Positions 1,357 through 14,161 of a stretch of 54,866 nt of DNA are shown piece after piece. Source of the DNA: a virus (Duplodnaviria; Caudoviricetes); the IMG/VR virus record IMGVR_UViG_3300043425_000164, positions 1 to 54,866 of that record. One strand, given 5' to 3'. Numbering within the stretch: the stretch's first letter is position 1; every line of letters begins with the position of its first letter. A model generated the notes under the pieces. The model had not been told where the DNA came from and did no database searches. It saw only the letters and a program-made list of their open reading frames with translations. The position numbers were made by a program, and so were the translations under genes.

Positions 1357-4300
1357 TCATAGCTCCGATGTTTGGCGAACAAAACCTTTATTGGCTCTGT
1401 TAGTTGTTACTCCGCCAACTACACCTCTTTCGCGTTTAGCCTGTTCTTGTGGAGCTTTTAGTAATGTTGATAATGGCTGTCTTGTGTAACCATTACGAAC
1501 ACGTGATTGCTGTAGTTTTTCCCAATCTTGTCTTGCTTCCGATAGGGCTGCTCCATCACCTTTTCTATACGCCCGTGCATACACACGTTTGATTTCGCTG
1601 GCCTTATCATTATAGAACTGATCGTACTCAAACTTGGCGCTTTGTAAAAATTGTTTATCAGTGAACTGCTTAGTTGGTAAGCCTAAGCCAACCATAAAGG
1701 CCTCTAAAGTACTGACTTCATCTGGGCTGATAAGTACATCGTCTGTACGTGATGTAACGCCCTCAGTGGCGAACCTATAGCCTTTCATGACTTGGGCTAG
1801 TCCGGTGGGCATCAGCTGCTCAATACCTTTGTAGTAGCTTCCCTGACCCATGAGAGATAGGCCGTCGGCTGCTTTTAAGGTTAGGCCACCAAATGGGCCG
1901 GTCATTAGGGCATACCCTGCCTGAGCCACACCTGCTTTGCTAAAGTCAATGTCTGTATATGGCAGGATTGAAAGCATTTGACCCATACCGATCTTACCCG
2001 ACACATCCACACCCATAGCCGCAGGTACACCCTTAACCAGCAAATCAGCTAAGAAATCATCACCAATCGCCCGGCGCATAGCAAGTTCTGGATTATCTGG
2101 CTCATCTTCGTCACCAAAGACTAGACCATATAGGAAAGATAGGGCCGCAAACCCAGGTAATCCCATTACACCGCCCATAGCTGCGGTATGTCCAATTGTG
2201 AACATCAGGGCGCGGCGCCCGATTTGACGAGTCTGCTCATCTTGTCCGGCAAACGCATCATTAAATAGACGGGCCATTAGGCTTAACTGAATTAGCTGAA
2301 ACTTACGGAACTGAGTAGCTAAACGACCTAAACCCTTACGGCTAATACGAGGAGCATTACCTACGCTATAGTCACCGTGGGTGGTGTAAATAACCTTGTC
2401 AGCATAATCAATAGCATTGTTCTTATTAACCCGAGCCTCTAAACGGTACGCTGCTACAGCGGTTGCCACACGGTTAATGGATTCAATGTCTTGTGCAATA
2501 CCACGCAAATACTCTGTAGCACGGCCAAACTTAGCTAGCTTGGAATCCTCAGTAGACCTCCAACGACCTAAGTCCTGCTCAAGGCTAATGTCGATTCTTC
2601 CGCGATTAACGAGCTCCTCAACAACATCTCTAACATCGGCGGGTAGTTTGTTATAGCTATTCTCATCAAGACCATGCTTACGAATAACGCTAGCAATATC
2701 CGAGTACGCATTAGTAAACTCCTTCCAGGCTTTATCGTAGCCATGCTTAGCGCCAATTACAGGCAACGACATCATGAATGGCTGAGTCATATTCTGTAAG
2801 TAGTAAGCAGGATTGGTCAAAAGCATCCAGACAGAGGTTGTATTCAGTGCTTTATCAATAAACGGCGATGGCTCATAATCCAAGCTCATTACATGCCGCT
2901 TCATAAACTCGTTGTAATACCGGCGACGCTCAGCGCGACCTGGGGTACGGGCATCGGCTTCTGCTTTCATCTGACGCAGACTATCGTAAATCTCATCAGA
3001 GTTTTCCAATGAGGAAATAAAGTGTGCCGTGGCTCGACCCTGAGTAGCAAACGCCCGCATCATATCTTTTTCAGCACCAGCAATCTTACGACGGCGACGC
3101 TCAGACTGGCGAGCAGACTGCTCAGACAGCATTGTTAAATGAAGATCGGATAATAAGCGGTTAATCGCTCGTTGAGATTTGTCAGCAGTATTATCGTCCT
3201 GGGTCTCTTCGACCATATTACGTAGGCGATAGAAAAGTCCCTGTACATCTGCTCCGCCGTAGAGGGCGGTACGGGCTGTGTCTTTTTCAAACGGTTCGAC
3301 GAGCGCATAGTTTGTCTCCTCATCACGAGCAATAGCCTTAGCTTCACCCATTGTTTCTGCAAACTGAACAAAGTAATGATCTTGGTTTTTCTCCATTTCA
3401 CGCAGCTTGCTATTTGCTTCGGCTACTTGGTCAGGAGTTGAGTTGGGGTTATCCCTAATATTTTCTTGGTCTAGATATGCCTGTGAACGACCAACCACTA
3501 CATAGTTACCAAAACGCTTCAGAGGCGCATATGGAGATTTGCTATTTACCCGCATCAAGGTGCGGTACTCAGTCAGCGAATTAGCCTTCTTTTTGGTTAG
3601 CTCTGCCACTTCTTGGGCATCACCAGCTTTTTGCGCTGCAGCAATTAATGCATCGTATTCAGTATTAATGTTACGGATAACTGCATCTTGCATTGCCTTT
3701 AATACCTGCTGACCGTGAGTAAAGACTTCTTTAATTAAATTCTGTGCTGCAGCTGGGAACGCATCAAAACGAGCCTTTAATTCAGGGTCAATCTTAGCGC
3801 CCTTGATATTTGGGTCATACGCCCACTCGCCCTTCATCGTCATATCTTTGAGGAACTGATTAACGCTATTCTCGCCAACACCCTTAACTTGGTCTGGCAG
3901 GGCATCGTATTTCTGCAAGATTTGATCTACCCGACGCTCAAAGCGGGTTTTAACAGCTTGCTGCTCTTTAATTAACTGGACATACTTCTTGGCAGAAGGA
4001 ATAAACTTAGCAGCTAGGTCAGCAAGATCTTCGGTAAATGCAAAATACGGTAAACCTTTCTTAGCGAAGTCGACAATGTTATCTGTGATCTGCTGTAATG
4101 GGCCACGAATTGGCTTGGGTAACTTGGCTACCTGTTGTGCAGTGGCCTCTCTAACTTTATTTAGATTAGCGGATTTACTAATATTTGTACGAATAGATGG
4201 GCTTACTTGTACTCGTAGAGCATCCGCTGCTGTTTTCATGCGACTAAGTACGTCAGCAGGCAAAGCCCCTTTAAACGACCCGACATCGACCCTTGCTACT

Positions 4301-7300
4301 CCGCTTGTATCCCCCATTTTGATGCCGGGCAGATATATCGTATTACCAAGTCTATTAGTGGCTTTATATAATGAATAGTCACCTTCTACCCATACCGGAG
4401 CACCATAATCCGCATTTAATGACCAGGTAGGCCATTTGGTAACATTAGTCTGTTTTCCAAAAGATTGAAAGCGTTTGTTAGCTTCTGCAATGTAAGGAGT
4501 TAGAGACTCTGTAAACATACCTTCTGAAATAGCCATTAAGTTGGCCAGAGCAGAATCAGATCTAACTGGTAGGTTTAGAGCACTAGAGATTAGTTTTACA
4601 AACTTGTCCCAGAAAGTAACTTTTGGTGATACTACAACGCTTGCTAAATATTCTTGGAAGTCTTTATTTGTTAAACCCCATGCCAGCAATTCGTCTGGGT
4701 CAGCTAAAGAATTATTTTCTCTTTGGAAGTACCGTTTTTCAAATTCATTTAGTGTACCGTCTGCGGCACGCTTGTTGTAATACGTTACTATTTCGTTAAA
4801 AAGCTCTCTTAACTGTTTGGCTGCTGAGCTGTCAGGAGCCATTTTTATTTGTCCTTGGGTTACAGCATGGATTAGCTCATGTACTAATGTTTCGTAATTA
4901 GTACCGGCTTTGTCCCCAGTATGGGCACCATTAAGGATAACGTCTATCTTTTGAGCCTGACCTAAACCGGCAGGAGTGTAAATAGATATTCCAGATGCGT
5001 TACCAGTTAGTTGTTTACCTGGATTTGTGAGGCTAAAACTAAATTCAACTCCTAAGCTAGCTAGCTCTTTTAAGCGAGCGTCTATTGCACGTAAAACCGT
5101 GCGCTCGTAGTCGTTTCTTGCTTTCGATAAAGCCCAGTTCATTGCCTCTTGAATTGTTTTACCACGGAGGGCTGCGTCTACTTCTTGAGACTGAGGGTCA
5201 ATTAGTGGATTATTTTCGCTAAAAGATCTTTGAACACTTTGAGCTGGAGTCATCATTTTAGCGAGCTTGACTAGCTCAGTTTGAACATCTTCAGGAGTCC
5301 AGTTTTCTTCGCCAAAACTAATCCAGTCGGCTTGCTGTTCTTCACTCAACTCTGAGAACTTTGGAGCATCAGGAAAATCTTTTATGCCTCTGTTCCATGC
5401 TTGCTCAGCTTGTTCTTCTAGCGTCCTCGCGCTGACTTCTTCATCGGCTTGTTCAGCTTCTGCGGCAGCTTCGTCCCTTTCGGTGTCTTCGCTTGGAACT
5501 CTTTGGCGAGCTTCGGCTTGTTTGCGTACAGATACCCTTTTTGTGCTTCGCTTTTGAACGGCATTATCTTCTCCTTTAGCAACACGAACTTCTTGACGAC
5601 GGTTGATTTCTTTAATAATAGCGTCTAGGTCAGAATCAACAATACGCTCATCAATAGCTAAGTTATTAAGTTCAAAGTCTTTTAGGGCTTCAATACCTTT
5701 TTTCTTAAACTTTTGATACGTTCTGTTGGCAGATGCAGCATCTTCTAATTCAGTAGCACCACTTACTTGTGGGTTAAATACTCGGAATCCAGATGCACCA
5801 CCACCTTCTTTTTCGCTAGTTTCTTCACGACCAAGAGTTTGGTCTTCTTTCTCAGCAACCATAGCTGCTTCTTCAGCCATGCTTGGGCCTGCTTCATCCG
5901 ATACGGCAGCTTCACGAGCCGCAACAGCTTCAAAGTCTAGGTCTTCTTCCGTTAATGCTTGCGCTTCGGTTTCAGTTTCTGCTTTGGCAGTAGACTTAAC
6001 CAATAGGTTATAAACATCGTCTTTCGTATAACCTAAGCGTTTAGCGGCTGCAAAGATTCGAGCGCCCCAAGTTTCTTGGGCTGTTGGTCCAGCGATTTGA
6101 GCAATACGAGCATCTGATACACCGTATTCTTTAGCAATTTCAACAGAAGTTTTTTCTCCTGTCAGATACTCCATAACGATACCGCCATCACGAGTACCAA
6201 AAGCGGAGTTAACAATAGTTCTAACCCGCTCTAATGCTTCAATACGATCATCAGGAATTACTTGCGCTTCTTGCCCAGTACTGGGAACGGCATTACTGAC
6301 CCGACCGGCACTGGGCTCAACCCGTGCTCGTACACTTCCTGGTCCGACATTTTGGACTGTACTCGGGAGTATAAGGTTGCTTCCTGTCCCGATGGGTCGA
6401 ACTTCGTTGGGTCGTACAGGCCCACTGACTCCAGGGCTTGCTTCTGCTGCTCTTCCTTGCTCTGATACTGTTCCCAGCCCGGCAGGACTCGGCACTCGCA
6501 GTTGTTGTCTTTCATTTGTTGCTCCTTTAGTTGTTTCGGATGCTAGTTGCTGAAGGGCTACAAAAGCTGGCGCATCCTTGCCAGTCAAAGCCTTATAAAA
6601 ACTATTAAGCTGGTCAGCCTCTTTTAGTGCTTTTGGACCTTCCAAACTTCCAATCAAAACATCTGCACGCTCGGCAGCATCTGCTTTATCCGCAGAACTA
6701 TCGATACCCCACTCAGATAAAAATTTAACTGCTGCGTTATTTACAGTTTTAGCATTTGACTTTAGGGGTACTTTTACAGCGCCAGAATTAAGAGCAGCGC
6801 CAATAATTGATTTTTGCTCAGGGGTCTTGTCTTGATTTAGAGCATCAAGATCAGCCAAAAACTTAGTAGCATCAGCTTGGGTAAATAAAGTCTTACCTGC
6901 AACGGTATAACGTCCTGCAACTTGAGTAGGTTGAACACCATAGGTAGAAGAGATTTCGTCAAACGCAGCTTGTTGCTCTGCTCGTTGTTGAGCAGCTTGT
7001 TGTTCTGCTTGTGTTTGAGCTACTCTTGCTGCCTCAATTTGAGACTCAATATTTTGTCTAGGATTTAAAACAGGGTTGCTATCAATCTGAGCTTGCACAG
7101 CGGCTACTTCTTGCTCAGTTCTAGTTCTCTGGGGTGGGCCTACTAAGATCTCAGAACTATTAGCATCAATGGCTTTATTGATGGCATTACCATCAGGGGT
7201 GGTCGCTTCGCCGGTGCTTAGGTTTGTAGAACCTGGCAATAAACTTCCGGGAGCAGTAACACGATTTAACGTACCAACAACGGCACCAGTACCACCACCT

Positions 7301-8184
7301 AATAAACCGCCTAATGTAGCCGAACCAATAACACCGGTCATAGGCTGAATACTTGGAGCCATTTCACCAGCGGCAAGATTTGCCGATAACTTGGTAGCAC
7401 CTTCTTCAATAAATTCTGAACCAGCCTCAACACCGGTTGTGCGTAAAATGCTCTTTGTACCAGCAGCAAATGCTTTATCAGCACCAACTAAACCAGAAGC
7501 GGCACCAATAACAAAAGGAAGTGGCGTAGCTTTTCTAGCAGCATCAGTCGCCATTTTTTCACGCTGTTCAATTGGTAAGTCCTGTAGTTCAGGAGCATTC
7601 ATTACCATTTGATACGCATCACCAGCAGCATCACCACCAGCTAGCACAGCACCAGCAGCAGAACCACCGGTTAAACCGGCACGGGCAACACCACGCTCGG
7701 TAAGACCGAGGGCACCACCTATCATCTTTCCGCCCTTAATTGCTGCACCAGGACCAACAAAGCTACCAATAGCTTGCGACGCAGCAAGCATAGGATTTTC
7801 TCTTACGTATTTAAAAGCTCCGCCAGCTTGTTCAGCTAGGCTCTCAGACTGCATAGAACGACCGAGTTGGAACTTAGCTTCGGCAGCTTCTAAAGATTGT
7901 TTCTTTTCACCTTCTTCAATAAAACGACCAATAGCAGCAGAAGCCTCTGTGCCGGGCTTTACTATATCTAGGGCTGCTTTAGGAAGGGATGCGACAGCGT
8001 TTGCAAACTCAATAGCGTAATCGTTTGCCGCACCAAATATGCCTCGTTTTTCAGTTACACCAAGATAGCCCGCTACTTCTTTCGGAGATAGACCAGTAAG
8101 TTCGACCCCTTTATCTAGGATCTCTCTATCACTTAGGTCTTTAGCCCACGGTGCTGCTTGGCGAATTTCGTCAAACAAAGACAT
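1357..8184 (-). CDS. Large internal virion/ejection protein (polyvalent: HTH, zincin HExxH and PLxRFG-type regions)
   Basis: 2275 aa; last of three ejection-like genes; Gly/Ala-rich N-terminus; TLVHELIHAVT; YAPLKRFGNY; SVEIAKEYGVSDARIAQI. Confidence 0.8.
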   Translation of the reverse strand: MSLFDEIRQAAPWAKDLSDREILDKGVELTGLSPKEVAGYLGVTEKRGIFGAANDYAIEFANAVASLPKAALDIVKPGTEASAAIGRFIEEGEKKQSLEAAEAKFQLGRSMQSESLAEQAGGAFKYVRENPMLAASQAIGSFVGPGAAIKGGKMIGGALGLTERGVARAGLTGGSAAGAVLAGGDAAGDAYQMVMNAPELQDLPIEQREKMATDAARKATPLPFVIGAASGLVGADKAFAAGTKSILRTTGVEAGSEFIEEGATKLSANLAAGEMAPSIQPMTGVIGSATLGGLLGGGTGAVVGTLNRVTAPGSLLPGSTNLSTGEATTPDGNAINKAIDANSSEILVGPPQRTRTEQEVAAVQAQIDSNPVLNPRQNIESQIEAARVAQTQAEQQAAQQRAEQQAAFDEISSTYGVQPTQVAGRYTVAGKTLFTQADATKFLADLDALNQDKTPEQKSIIGAALNSGAVKVPLKSNAKTVNNAAVKFLSEWGIDSSADKADAAERADVLIGSLEGPKALKEADQLNSFYKALTGKDAPAFVALQQLASETTKGATNERQQLRVPSPAGLGTVSEQGRAAEASPGVSGPVRPNEVRPIGTGSNLILPSTVQNVGPGSVRARVEPSAGRVSNAVPSTGQEAQVIPDDRIEALERVRTIVNSAFGTRDGGIVMEYLTGEKTSVEIAKEYGVSDARIAQIAGPTAQETWGARIFAAAKRLGYTKDDVYNLLVKSTAKAETETEAQALTEEDLDFEAVAAREAAVSDEAGPSMAEEAAMVAEKEDQTLGREETSEKEGGGASGFRVFNPQVSGATELEDAASANRTYQKFKKKGIEALKDFELNNLAIDERIVDSDLDAIIKEINRRQEVRVAKGEDNAVQKRSTKRVSVRKQAEARQRVPSEDTERDEAAAEAEQADEEVSARTLEEQAEQAWNRGIKDFPDAPKFSELSEEQQADWISFGEENWTPEDVQTELVKLAKMMTPAQSVQRSFSENNPLIDPQSQEVDAALRGKTIQEAMNWALSKARNDYERTVLRAIDARLKELASLGVEFSFSLTNPGKQLTGNASGISIYTPAGLGQAQKIDVILNGAHTGDKAGTNYETLVHELIHAVTQGQIKMAPDSSAAKQLRELFNEIVTYYNKRAADGTLNEFEKRYFQRENNSLADPDELLAWGLTNKDFQEYLASVVVSPKVTFWDKFVKLISSALNLPVRSDSALANLMAISEGMFTESLTPYIAEANKRFQSFGKQTNVTKWPTWSLNADYGAPVWVEGDYSLYKATNRLGNTIYLPGIKMGDTSGVARVDVGSFKGALPADVLSRMKTAADALRVQVSPSIRTNISKSANLNKVREATAQQVAKLPKPIRGPLQQITDNIVDFAKKGLPYFAFTEDLADLAAKFIPSAKKYVQLIKEQQAVKTRFERRVDQILQKYDALPDQVKGVGENSVNQFLKDMTMKGEWAYDPNIKGAKIDPELKARFDAFPAAAQNLIKEVFTHGQQVLKAMQDAVIRNINTEYDALIAAAQKAGDAQEVAELTKKKANSLTEYRTLMRVNSKSPYAPLKRFGNYVVVGRSQAYLDQENIRDNPNSTPDQVAEANSKLREMEKNQDHYFVQFAETMGEAKAIARDEETNYALVEPFEKDTARTALYGGADVQGLFYRLRNMVEETQDDNTADKSQRAINRLLSDLHLTMLSEQSARQSERRRRKIAGAEKDMMRAFATQGRATAHFISSLENSDEIYDSLRQMKAEADARTPGRAERRRYYNEFMKRHVMSLDYEPSPFIDKALNTTSVWMLLTNPAYYLQNMTQPFMMSLPVIGAKHGYDKAWKEFTNAYSDIASVIRKHGLDENSYNKLPADVRDVVEELVNRGRIDISLEQDLGRWRSTEDSKLAKFGRATEYLRGIAQDIESINRVATAVAAYRLEARVNKNNAIDYADKVIYTTHGDYSVGNAPRISRKGLGRLATQFRKFQLIQLSLMARLFNDAFAGQDEQTRQIGRRALMFTIGHTAAMGGVMGLPGFAALSFLYGLVFGDEDEPDNPELAMRRAIGDDFLADLLVKGVPAAMGVDVSGKIGMGQMLSILPYTDIDFSKAGVAQAGYALMTGPFGGLTLKAADGLSLMGQGSYYKGIEQLMPTGLAQVMKGYRFATEGVTSRTDDVLISPDEVSTLEAFMVGLGLPTKQFTDKQFLQSAKFEYDQFYNDKASEIKRVYARAYRKGDGAALSEARQDWEKLQQSRVRNGYTRQPLSTLLKAPQEQAKRERGVVGGVTTNRANKGFVRQTSEL
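5418..5564 (-). CDS. Nested 48-aa basic protein (MPFKSEAQKGYLYANKPKLAKEFQAKTPKG...) in the +1 frame of the giant gene
   Basis: SD AAAGGAG at 5571-5577, 6 nt before the ATG; translation resembles a recurrent small phage protein type (MPFKSxAQ...AKEF...TPKG). Confidence 0.7.
   Translation of the reverse strand: MPFKSEAQKGYLYANKPKLAKEFQAKTPKGTKLPQKLNKPMKKSARGR
6258..6515 (-). CDS. Nested 85-aa protein in the +1 frame of the giant gene
   Basis: Context AAAGGAGCAACAAATG gives a strong SD at normal spacing; same frame offset as 5418-5564. Confidence 0.55.
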   Translation of the reverse strand: MKDNNCECRVLPGWEQYQSKEEQQKQALESVGLYDPTKFDPSGQEATLYSRVQSKMSDQEVYEHGLSPVPVGSVMPFPVLGKKRK

Positions 8185-9533: not shown

Positions 9534-10493
9534 TTAAGCTTTACCAGCTAAGGCAGTCGGGCCGCCAAGATAATACTTCAGACCAATACCAGCTAAACCG
9601 CCCACAGCAGAACCCCAGCCAGCGGAGCTTTGTGCATTTGCTTGTTGCTGAGCTGAGTATGCATTAACGTCAGCGTTATATTTCTGAACACCAAGCTGAC
9701 CAACCTGATTCCAGCCTTGCATTGCTCCACCATAAGTACTACCCATAGCGCCAGTCATAGCACCATAATTAGCCATGGGTACTTGACCGGACTGAAGAGC
9801 CTGATTGCCTGCACTTAGAGCTAAGCCAGTAGAAGTTGCTTGATTACCAAACTGACCTTGAGATAGAGCAATCGCATCCATCTTCTTAGCCCAGCCTAAC
9901 TGCTCAGCAGCAGTACGAGCACGAGTAGCAGCCGCAGAACCAACCGCAGCTTCCATAATTGCATTAGCATTTGCTGTAGAAGTCGCACGACCTGAAGTGG
10001 GGTCAATTCCAAAAGACTGTAAACGACGCTGCTCATCCGCTGCTTTAATACCAAACGCAGACTTTACATCACCCATAGCTTCAGCTGCAATACGCTCACG
10101 ATTAGCTTCGGTGTCATACTCTGCTGCTCGTTTATAAATATCTTGACGAAGAGGAGCGCCATACTGCTCAAACTCTTGCATGGTTTTCTTTGCAGATTCG
10201 ATCTGCATAGTTTGCAGTTCTCGGTCTAATGCAAATTGCTCATCAGCACGAATTTCTTGTTTTTCAGCCTGCTCCTTCATTTTAGGCCAAACTTCTGTTT
10301 TCCAAGATTCGAGATACTCTTTAGAAATAGCAGCTAATTCACGCTGAGCAATACCAATATTGGGGTCTGGTGCAGGAGCAGAACCACCGCCTCCGCTTTT
10401 ACCACCTTCTAGTGTCATACCACGGGCAAATGGCCCTTTACCCCTAGGCTGGAACGCCCGTTCGGGTAGCATGTCATCGTATCCAAGTCTCAT
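9534..10493 (-). CDS. DNA ejection/pilot protein (P22 gp7-like)
   Basis: Ala/Gln/Gly-rich; short leader followed by E-GGKSGGGG; hydrophobic Gly-rich C-terminus; start MRLGY overlaps the upstream stop. Confidence 0.65.
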   Translation of the reverse strand: MRLGYDDMLPERAFQPRGKGPFARGMTLEGGKSGGGGSAPAPDPNIGIAQRELAAISKEYLESWKTEVWPKMKEQAEKQEIRADEQFALDRELQTMQIESAKKTMQEFEQYGAPLRQDIYKRAAEYDTEANRERIAAEAMGDVKSAFGIKAADEQRRLQSFGIDPTSGRATSTANANAIMEAAVGSAAATRARTAAEQLGWAKKMDAIALSQGQFGNQATSTGLALSAGNQALQSGQVPMANYGAMTGAMGSTYGGAMQGWNQVGQLGVQKYNADVNAYSAQQQANAQSSAGWGSAVGGLAGIGLKYYLGGPTALAGKA

Positions 10494-10912
10494 CGTTTCA
10501 TCTCCAGCCAACGGCACTCTTCTTTAAGCATGCCATATAAAATTAAATTACTACCATCGTCTGCGCCACGTCTAATAAGTCCTTCTTTTTTAAACCCAAG
10601 GTGCTCATCAAAACGCTGTGCATCTAAATTGTCTTCCCTTACCAAACCACCTACACGGTGGCATTTCAATTGTATAAAAGGGTAAGCAAAACAACGATAT
10701 AGGTAATCTCGTGTCAACCATCTGCGCCCCGGTTCTGCCGCCACATGCATCATAATTGACGGGCCGGTATACAAATTAAACACAACACCTGCTATAAGCT
10801 CACCATCTTCTTCTAGCCCAATTGCCACAGCATCGCCAAATTCATCCTCATCGATTCTATAACCGACCCAAGGGATTACTCTATCTTCTTGGCCATAAAC
10901 GACTGTTTTCAT
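10490..10912 (-). CDS. GNAT-fold virion assembly protein
   Basis: N...RFDEHLGFKKEG GNAT motif; position just before the ejection genes is typical of podoviruses. Confidence 0.75.
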   Translation of the reverse strand: MKTVVYGQEDRVIPWVGYRIDEDEFGDAVAIGLEEDGELIAGVVFNLYTGPSIMMHVAAEPGRRWLTRDYLYRCFAYPFIQLKCHRVGGLVREDNLDAQRFDEHLGFKKEGLIRRGADDGSNLILYGMLKEECRWLEMKR

Positions 10913-13247: not shown

Positions 13248-13700
13248 CTAACTAAACATTCTAGTGCCTTTTGAGTCAATAATCAAAGCACTTCTCCTTG
13301 GGCGACCGTCAGCAGAATTAGGTACAGAAATATGCACCCATCCGCCGGGTTTGCCTTCTTCGTAGAATTCTTGAATTAACTGATCAAATGGGATTCCGCT
13401 AGCAATAACTAACTTACATACATCTCTAGGGGTCATCCCTGTAACACGAAAATCTGCCGCACAACCAAGCCTATGCTGGGACGTATCCCGACTGCCTATA
13501 GCGTCATTAACTAATTTAGACCTAAAGCCGGAAGTAATAATAATTGGCTGAAGCACTACGTCCCTAACCATTTCAAGCAAATGCGCAAGACGAGTCAGGT
13601 TCTGAACTTCTGCTTCATTAGGAGTATTGTCCCAGCCGCGTCTAGCCGCAGTTTCGGAAGCAGTTAGCTCTTCAAGAGTGAAGTGTCTAGTTAAATTCAC
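13248..13700 (-). CDS. Endolysin, peptidase M15A family
   Basis: HFTLEELT, ITSGFRS, SQHRLGCAAD and WVHIS zinc-peptidase motifs. Confidence 0.9.
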   Translation of the reverse strand: MNLTRHFTLEELTASETAARRGWDNTPNEAEVQNLTRLAHLLEMVRDVVLQPIIITSGFRSKLVNDAIGSRDTSQHRLGCAADFRVTGMTPRDVCKLVIASGIPFDQLIQEFYEEGKPGGWVHISVPNSADGRPRRSALIIDSKGTRMFS

Positions 13701-14161
13701 TTTTTCTCCAGCATCTTGTCTATAGCAGAATTCTTAGCCGCGCTACCTTGGGAGCTACCAAAATAGTACGAAATAATTTGGGTGGCAATCGCTGACAAAA
13801 CCCCCAAGACATAAATAAGTATATCTTTGCGGGTAGAGTCAATACTGCCGTCGTCAAACAAAACTAAGCCAAACAGAATAAAAGTCATCAGCAGCACAGA
13901 CGCTGCCAACACAGGGGTAATGATCTTATTAATTAAAGGCGCAACATCGCTAGTTACAATCTCTGCTTCCCGCTTACGGGCTGAGTCTACGTCTGCAGCA
14001 TAAATTTTAGCTAGCTCGGTATCATTAGCCATCTTAGCTAACTCGCCGTCATTCTGCATTTTTAAAAGCTCGTATTGCGCTTTTGCTCTTTGCTCTGGAT
14101 CAGGTAAAAACCTGTCAATTAGTTTACTACCAATATCTAGGATTGCTCCGATGGGGAACAT
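13697..14161 (-). CDS. Holin-like membrane protein
   Basis: Two transmembrane segments and YYFGSS motif; adjacent to the endolysin. Confidence 0.75.
   Translation of the reverse strand: MFPIGAILDIGSKLIDRFLPDPEQRAKAQYELLKMQNDGELAKMANDTELAKIYAADVDSARKREAEIVTSDVAPLINKIITPVLAASVLLMTFILFGLVLFDDGSIDSTRKDILIYVLGVLSAIATQIISYYFGSSQGSAAKNSAIDKMLEKK

Follow-up and report, generated by a model that had tools for sequence, protein, structure and literature searches.

Can a complete gene be read, out of frame, from inside one of the largest genes of a tailed phage? Few textbook examples of out-of-frame embedding exist for tailed phages, Rz/Rz1 being the classic one, and such genes are passed over by standard gene callers. 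The question is raised by IMG/VR virus record IMGVR_UViG_3300043425_000164 (Duplodnaviria; Caudoviricetes), a linear, metagenome-derived contig that is 95% complete by CheckV; the whole record, 54,866 nucleotides (nt) in length, is the window analyzed here. On its minus strand, a 48-codon open reading frame (ORF) at 5418..5564 lies in the +1 frame of a giant gene at 1357..8184, which encodes 2275 amino acids (aa) and is the last large gene of the virion module. We refer to the small product as P0001 and to the giant host protein as P0002. A sequence-only reading had proposed that a real gene was absorbed into, or overprinted on, a linker of the giant protein. Our analysis supports this proposal: with a probability of about 0.85, the 48-codon ORF is truly protein-coding and lies as a whole within a giant virion-protein gene, and both reading frames of the overlap appear to be in use.

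A 48-codon ORF with its own start signals

The embedded ORF begins on the minus strand with an ATG at 5564..5562 and ends with a TAG at 5420..5418. A Shine-Dalgarno (SD) sequence, AAAGGAG (5571..5577), lies 6 nt upstream of the ATG, separated from it by the spacer AAGATA (5565..5570), and the distance to the start of the giant ORF, (8184 − 5564) mod 3 = 1, places the small ORF in the +1 frame. The start signals, the 48 codons, the peptide and the frame were all exactly as the sequence-only reading had given them, and so was the host-frame reading of the overlap (5419..5565, minus strand; giant-protein residues 874–922), a hydrophilic and probably disordered linker. The length of the ORF by itself is unremarkable, since the giant gene contains six same-strand alternative-frame ATG ORFs of at least 40 codons. 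What sets the 48-codon ORF above chance is the combination of homology, recurrence in the nested state and substitution pattern. The expectation that gene callers would miss such a gene was borne out as well: the public protein collection contains the giant protein of this record, without the exact 48-aa product or the exact 85-aa product of a second embedded ORF described below. A scan for promoters and terminators detected no promoter-like site in 5200–6800, and terminator-like sites there were at chance level.

The predicted product is basic, with an isoelectric point (pI) of 10.6, 14 Lys and Arg residues and 2 Asp and Glu residues; it lacks Cys, a hydrophobic N-terminus, a signal sequence and a lipobox. 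An AlphaFold model computed with the family alignment described below predicts two short helices (residues 6–15 and 17–26) followed by an unstructured basic tail, at a predicted local distance difference test (pLDDT) score of 77.9. A BFVD fold search with this model returned uncharacterised sequence relatives only, none of them at E ≤ 0.001. Sequence matches of P0001 in the PDB were rejected as spurious, being to designed repeat proteins only, at about 3 bits per repeat.

P0001 belongs to a large family of small basic phage proteins

We searched P0001 against 5.8 billion predicted proteins. Sixty-seven of the 69 candidates matched at E ≤ 0.01 (E values from 4.5e-21 to 4.9e-5; lengths 39–68 aa), and the best match, at E 4.5e-21, was 96% identical. 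An alignment of 23 members including P0001 has 13 invariant columns, among them M1, P2, F3, K4, S5 and Q8, and proves correct the pattern MPFKSxAQ...AKEF..KTPKG given in the sequence-only reading. P0001 also has the remainder of the family core, namely Y13, P17, A20-K21, T27 and L33-P34 followed by a Lys/Arg-rich tail, the family length being about 37–60 aa. A profile search of 1.84 billion cluster representatives yielded 3632 matches at E ≤ 1e-3, of which 584 reached E ≤ 1e-10. The homologues expected of the 48-aa peptide are therefore numerous, and they occur both free-standing and nested.

Of the 150 best representatives, 124 have the module headed by MPFKS at residue 1–3. It is also present, almost always at the N-terminus, in at least 248 longer proteins (120–2000 aa), whose fusion partners include DUF5661, DUF6582, a Mu-F head-morphogenesis domain (one case), an M48-like peptidase and many unannotated regions. 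In proteins P0075, P0104, P0163, P0182 and P0101, among which are DUF5661 and Mu-F proteins and an M48-like peptidase with glycine zippers, the module forms the N-terminal 40 residues; P0075 has a further, diverged copy close to its C-terminus.

No member of the MPFKS family carries a name in the sources searched. Pfam and NCBIfam gave no match to P0001 or to P0190, the product of the second embedded ORF, and for P0001 Pfam gave none even at E ≤ 1. Matches to Ribosomal_S16 at E 0.04–0.07 were disregarded as far below the cut-off, and a suspected resemblance to DUF3008 was set aside after Pfam searches reported nothing at E ≤ 1 for P0001 and nothing at E ≤ 0.01 for other family members. The only library model that matched P0001 was phrog_1375, a PHROGs family without an assigned function whose profile is longer than P0001; residues 3–45 align weakly to profile positions 17–58 of 70, at E 1.4e-4 and 23.2 bits, and the model has no curated cut-off. 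Sibling MPFKS proteins match phrog_1375 at similarly weak scores.

Among GenBank phages, blastn of window positions 4800–6200 at the distant setting found no match, and tblastn of P0001 found two partial weak matches only, in Phage C75C1 (OQ984151; locus L001, 8001–8105) and in Prochlorococcus phage P-RSP2 (HQ332139; locus L002, about 6001–6114). In both phages the MPFKS member, although free-standing, lies unannotated in a gap between annotated genes.

Nesting recurs in diverged viral loci

A scan of IMG/VR for relatives of P0001 identified 386 loci, of which the best 80 were kept. In 17 of these 80, the homologue lies inside a same-strand ORF of 2004–3807 aa, always in the +1 frame and at 19–44% of the length of the giant host. 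Seven further loci have a shorter spanning frame, and in four of them (L008, L020, L057 and L058) this frame looks open by chance. In L075, L079 and L081, the homologue is nested in the +1 frame near the 5′ end of acidic, Glu-rich genes of about 400 aa (L075:4760-5932, L079:1678-2970 and L081:5002-5841), whose products are 41–47% identical to each other. These genes occupy the scaffold position, with the portal gene on one side and a phrog_13704 structural gene on the other. The remaining 56 loci carry free-standing copies or N-terminal fusions. In L072 (L072:9999-10174), the small gene is free and forms an overlapping TAATG junction with the end of a 1608-aa ORF without a family match; it is the last gene on the strand. 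This arrangement may represent the unfused state of the giant-gene arrangement. BLASTP of the three hosts of about 400 aa and of the 1608-aa ORF against all long ORFs of the loci revealed no link to the giant genes, and the Glu-rich family is apparently a second kind of MPFKS host gene, unrelated to them.

The giant hosts do not form one tight family. Those of the window, L014, L019, L037, L045 and L052 share the phrog_11358 C-terminal domain, those of L022, L051 and L066 have phrog_32588 at the N-terminus, and those of L056, L063 and L080 match nothing. By BLASTP, the host of the window is recognisably similar only to those of L003, L005, L006, L010, L021 and L053. While the hosts are thus barely alignable, the embedded peptide is 50–92% identical across loci, as measured on the best tblastn segment.

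Combining the best 80 loci with those from a scan for P0190 gave 39 unique nested cases of the P0001 family, in which we examined the start signals. Thirty-eight of the 39 copies start with ATG and one with GTG. Thirty-three of the 39 have a 4-mer SD core at −17 to −4, for which the background in these giant genes is 0.144; a 5-mer is present in 16 of 39, with a background of 0.032. In the six nested loci that lack an SD, just 1 of 39 other long ORFs is preceded by one; in the SD-bearing loci, the corresponding proportion ranges from 3/6 to 21/31. Absence of the SD therefore tracks genomes that otherwise do without it, and the internal signal follows each genome's own way of starting translation.

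Substitutions in the overlap follow the embedded frame

We compared the giant gene of the window with that of its nearest relative, L003. Within the overlap, differences at host codon positions 1, 2 and 3 numbered 7, 2 and 2; elsewhere in the N-terminal part, over 778 aligned codons, they numbered 112, 68 and 309 (Fisher p = 0.0035). Because host position 1 is position 3 of the small frame, the periodicity of substitution switches register in the overlap. Host third-position identity was 0.96 in the overlap against a gene-wide mean of 0.56 (standard deviation 0.16), a level reached by 40 of 2126 sliding windows of 49 codons, and the nucleotide identity of the overlap, 0.925, was reached by 3 of the 2126. 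As negative controls we used four further ATG ORFs in alternative frames of the giant gene, each with at least 40 codons; their differences were of the ordinary, third-position-dominated kind, and they behave as chance ORFs. Third-position identity to L003 of at least 0.85 was also seen at host residues 527–556, directly upstream of the second embedded ATG, and at residues 1665–1696 and 2176–2207, which partly overlap the alternative-frame ORFs 3135..3323 and 1458..1610, otherwise ordinary in substitutions.

Comparison of nested with free-standing copies points in the same direction. All nested copies have an open host frame, but the corresponding frame is open in only 2 of 46 free-standing genes. 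At small-frame third positions where a T would give rise to a stop in the host frame, T occurs at 0 of 773 nested sites, compared with 22.5% in free-standing genes; at non-stop sites it occurs at 42 of 1098 nested sites (3.8%), compared with 17.2% in free-standing genes and, at first positions of host codons beyond the overlap, 13.9%. The entropy of the small-frame third position is 1.07 bits in nested and 1.58 bits in free-standing copies, and Lys is encoded by AAG in 71 of 92 nested instances versus 168 of 312 free-standing ones. The host frame thus stays open through a codon choice that avoids T at the shared position, and by the same codon choice the Lys-rich peptide (22% Lys) reads, one base earlier, as a stretch rich in Glu, Ala, Val, Lys, Gly and Gln. 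As judged from these substitutions, the pair displays the generic marks of overlapping genes under selection in two frames: a periodicity in the register of the embedded frame, and a host frame that is kept open and is constrained in composition beyond the effect of the embedded sequence. Three checks had been set for the proposal beforehand, namely homologues of the peptide, conservation of its SD and ATG in relatives, and lowered synonymous variation in the host across the overlap; none of them refuted it, and the reduction of host third-position variation was strong.

A second putative gene is embedded in the same giant gene

The sliding-window comparison with L003 also revealed high third-position identity at host residues about 527–648, a region that the sequence-only reading had passed over. 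It contains an 85-codon ORF (6258..6515, minus strand) encoding P0190, again in the +1 frame of the giant gene and about 700 nt upstream of P0001. An AAAGGAG at 6522..6528 (minus strand) lies 6 nt upstream of its ATG, the same spacing as for P0001, and the high third-position identity starts about 30 codons upstream of this ATG. In the P0190 region, differences between the window and L003 at host positions 1, 2 and 3 numbered 21, 7 and 4 (p = 1.3e-8).

Nine called proteins of 70–142 aa match P0190 at 47–92% identity, and tblastn of P0190 against GenBank phages gave no match. In the IMG/VR scan for P0190, 33 of 35 matched loci were real, the other two being weak matches within unrelated long ORFs. 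The homologue is nested in the +1 frame in all 33 real loci, within hosts of 757–3120 aa, some of which are cut by contig ends; no free-standing copy was found among them. Twenty-five of the 33 also bear an MPFKS ORF by the strict pattern, in the same frame, and in the 24 loci that hold the whole match it lies about 950–1700 nt downstream of the P0190 ORF. An SD 5-mer precedes 26 of 28 unique P0190 copies against a background of 0.018, and the two misses are cases in which the script chose a downstream Met. Among the copies, pairwise identity averages 0.69 in the nested frame, compared with 0.46 in that of the host. The AlphaFold model of P0190 is poor (pLDDT 57.7). Since P0190 follows the same rules as P0001, the giant gene would be a coding unit with three products.

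The giant host gene and its genomic context

The minus-strand half of the window is a virion module that runs through terminase, portal, major head protein, tail fibres, holin/endolysin, a phrog_511 internal virion protein, an acetyltransferase and structural proteins to the giant gene, which comes after the internal-virion-protein genes; the plus-strand half is devoted to replication. The lysis genes are at 13248..14161, 7.7 kb away from the embedded gene. By the major head protein, the nearest cultured relatives are Rhizobium phages, at 46% identity. An acyl-CoA N-acyltransferase gene (10490..10912, minus strand; phrog_4470, E 1.3e-49) lies among the internal-virion and structural genes directly upstream of the giant gene.

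Through its conserved C-terminal domain, P0002 matches the last 900 or so residues of the giant phage and plasmid proteins of phrog_10089 (‘DarB-like antirestriction’) and phrog_11358 (E 7.5e-56 and 3.7e-54), and its N-terminal domain matches phrog_18222. Its position and PHROG matches suggest that P0002 is an internal or ejected virion protein; the labels ‘ejection protein’ and ‘polyvalent protein’ that the sequence-only reading attached to it have this same basis and do not amount to a demonstrated identity. An HExxH motif (HELIH) occurs at host residue 1102 (4867..4881, minus strand), inside a part-match to phrog_2206 ‘virion RNA polymerase’ (residues 1094–1233), and this segment may be a zinc-peptidase-like module. 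Host residues 644–873 (5566..6255, minus strand), between the two embedded genes, gave weak matches to HTH_28 (E 0.0011) and Sigma70_r4 (E 0.019), both below the Pfam cut-offs.

Possible expression, function and origin

Most probably, ribosomes on the late mRNA would start internally at the SD and ATG to make the 48-aa protein, and for ribosomes that come from the giant gene's own ATG these bases would encode an acidic or hydrophilic linker that joins the N-terminal and C-terminal modules. With low confidence, we suggest that P0001 folds as a hairpin of two helices, followed by a Lys-rich tail, and that it works inside the capsid or close to its interior, where it would bind DNA or an acidic partner, and is made together with internal head proteins. 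To a role inside the capsid as such we would give roughly one chance in four, on the weak indications that both kinds of host gene would encode head-interior proteins, that one family member is fused to a Mu-F domain and that the protein is strongly basic (pI 10.6).

As to origin, the small gene would be the older partner and the linker the overprinted frame, the giant gene and, separately, the scaffold-position gene having come to read through a small gene that was already there. The tree of the small protein, built on 40 columns, is poorly resolved, with nested copies in several places; well-supported branches force at least 3 changes between the nested and the free state, the most parsimonious number is 12–13, and shuffled labels give about 28. 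From the breadth of the small family, the scattering of nested copies, the TAATG junction of L072 and a host frame without conservation beyond what the overlap forces, we favour the interpretation that long genes grew through an older short gene, probably more than once. A wider scenario is possible but rather doubtful. Under it, a broad lineage of uncultured tailed phages has a fixed ‘three-in-one’ unit, in which a giant gene for an internal virion protein contains two +1-frame genes, and the small products are obligate partners of the giant protein or of internal head proteins, perhaps as cofactors of packaging or ejection that are produced in step with the host mRNA. Reverse overprinting would have taken place repeatedly, in at least two unrelated host genes, eased by the fact that one base upstream of an AAG-coded, Lys-rich peptide the frame gives a Glu-rich linker of its own accord.

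Alternative explanations

Among the alternatives, the one that survives best, although we consider it improbable, is that the ORF is an untranslated relic: a free-standing small gene swallowed in the fusion of two large genes, which persists only as a linker. Free-standing homologues do exist, the TAATG junction that follows the 1608-aa ORF in L072 makes capture by fusion plausible, and expression of P0001 is argued from its sequence. A relic should decay, yet the small frame keeps 50–90% amino-acid identity across barely alignable hosts, with the variation falling at its own third positions; moreover, the ATG is retained in 38 of 39 copies and the SD tracks genome-wide SD use.

A frameshift product is slightly less probable again. 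A +1 shift would yield a truncated N-terminal protein with a basic tail, and an internal start followed by a −1 shift would fuse MPFKS to the C-terminal 1350 aa. The latter would resemble the at least 248 longer proteins in which the module, mostly at residue 1, is joined to a large domain, and Lys-rich tails can hold slippery A-runs. The window ORF, however, has no X_XXY_YYZ heptamer, and heptamers in the nested ORFs occur at inconsistent positions and are rarer (13 of 38) than in free-standing ones (25 of 46). An invariant ATG with an SD suits initiation and is unneeded for a +1 shift, and free-standing forms of 37–60 aa indicate that the short product is functional alone.

It is very unlikely that the conserved element is an RNA or DNA feature, such as a structure or a binding site, instead of a second protein. 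The overlap is among the three most conserved of the 2126 windows of 49 codons at the nucleotide level, and the third-position identity that is high from about 30 codons upstream of the P0190 ATG would also fit such an element; against this, variation has a three-base periodicity in register with the small frame, and among free-standing genes the amino acids are conserved through many synonymous changes. A chance ORF, or an assembly artefact in which frameshift errors joined genes into a giant ORF, is hardly credible: the gene does contain six alternative-frame ATG ORFs of at least 40 codons and the record is a metagenome-derived contig, but homology reaches E 4.5e-21, +1 nesting recurs in 39 unique loci from independent samples, and the host frame is open in all nested loci versus 2 of 46 free-standing ones.

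Several points weigh against our conclusion that the 48-codon ORF is an embedded gene, or against parts of its interpretation. The case for its translation is built from sequence comparison, and the AAAGGAG doubles as Lys-Gly-Glu codons of the host frame. The counted loci share kinship, so that the counts of nested cases are not counts of independent events, and the best 80 of 386 loci may over-represent kin of the window. Poor resolution of the tree makes the number and the direction of the capture events tentative, and with every copy seen for P0190 being nested, ‘absorption’ is not supported for it. No annotated homologue backs a function for P0001, as Pfam, NCBIfam and PDB gave none and the sole, weak PHROG match is to a family without an assigned function. 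The sequence-only reading had expected free-standing late genes in other phages: free-standing homologues were indeed found, but their neighbours are mixed (tail fibre, portal, ribonucleotide reductase, RusA and terminase genes), so that the late-gene part is only partly borne out, and this heterogeneity also weakens the proposed link to the head interior.

Significance and comparison with known systems

If the embedded ORFs are genes, one giant gene hides two of them, in an arrangement kept across dozens of diverged environmental phages, and the annotations of genomes with nested copies lack a class of phage proteins that is real and widespread. Because the same small gene can be compared in the nested and the free-standing state, the system is an unusually clean natural one for the evolution of dual coding, and the costs of dual coding become measurable as the loss of T at the shared position and a greater use of AAG for Lys. 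The arrangement also suggests that, besides the de novo birth of a short frame, the growth of a long gene through an older short gene can produce overlaps, and it flags the MPFKS family, with its thousands of members, as a target for experiments. The openly accessible literature searched gave no account of the MPFKS family or of genes embedded in giant phage genes; the family and its nesting are apparently undescribed.

The architecture is an Rz/Rz1-like embedding with differing gene content. In phage lambda and its relatives, the complete Rz1 gene, SD and ATG included, is contained in the +1 frame of the longer Rz gene on the same strand, and one late mRNA serves for the two products. P0001 likewise has a complete ORF with its own SD and ATG, wholly within a larger same-strand gene and in the +1 frame. 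It differs in lacking Cys, a signal sequence and a lipobox, and in having as its host a 2275-aa virion-module protein instead of an inner-membrane spanin, with the lysis genes elsewhere; it does not fit an Rz1-type o-spanin, as there is no lipobox Cys and the host is not an i-spanin beside holin/endolysin. A very large free-standing family and the presence of two different genes in one host set it apart further.

Overprinting in Microviridae (in phiX174, gene B within A, E within D, and K) is also same-strand, out-of-frame dual coding, in which the short frame is regarded as having arisen de novo. The arrangement described here resembles them in its dual coding and in the apparent selection on both frames, and differs in that the short frame looks older, judged by the breadth of its family, and the linker of the giant gene younger. 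With the giant phage and plasmid proteins of phrog_10089 and phrog_11358, P0002 shares the C-terminal domain only, and no DarB-type helicase or methylase domain was detected in it; five other hosts of nested copies share phrog_11358. Among cellular genes, the longer gene gnd of E. coli contains, on the same strand and in another frame, the code for GndA, a polypeptide with a length below 50 residues (PMC11230408). GndA is a single case in a cellular gene, whereas P0001 is conserved in many diverged phage lineages and has free-standing homologues.

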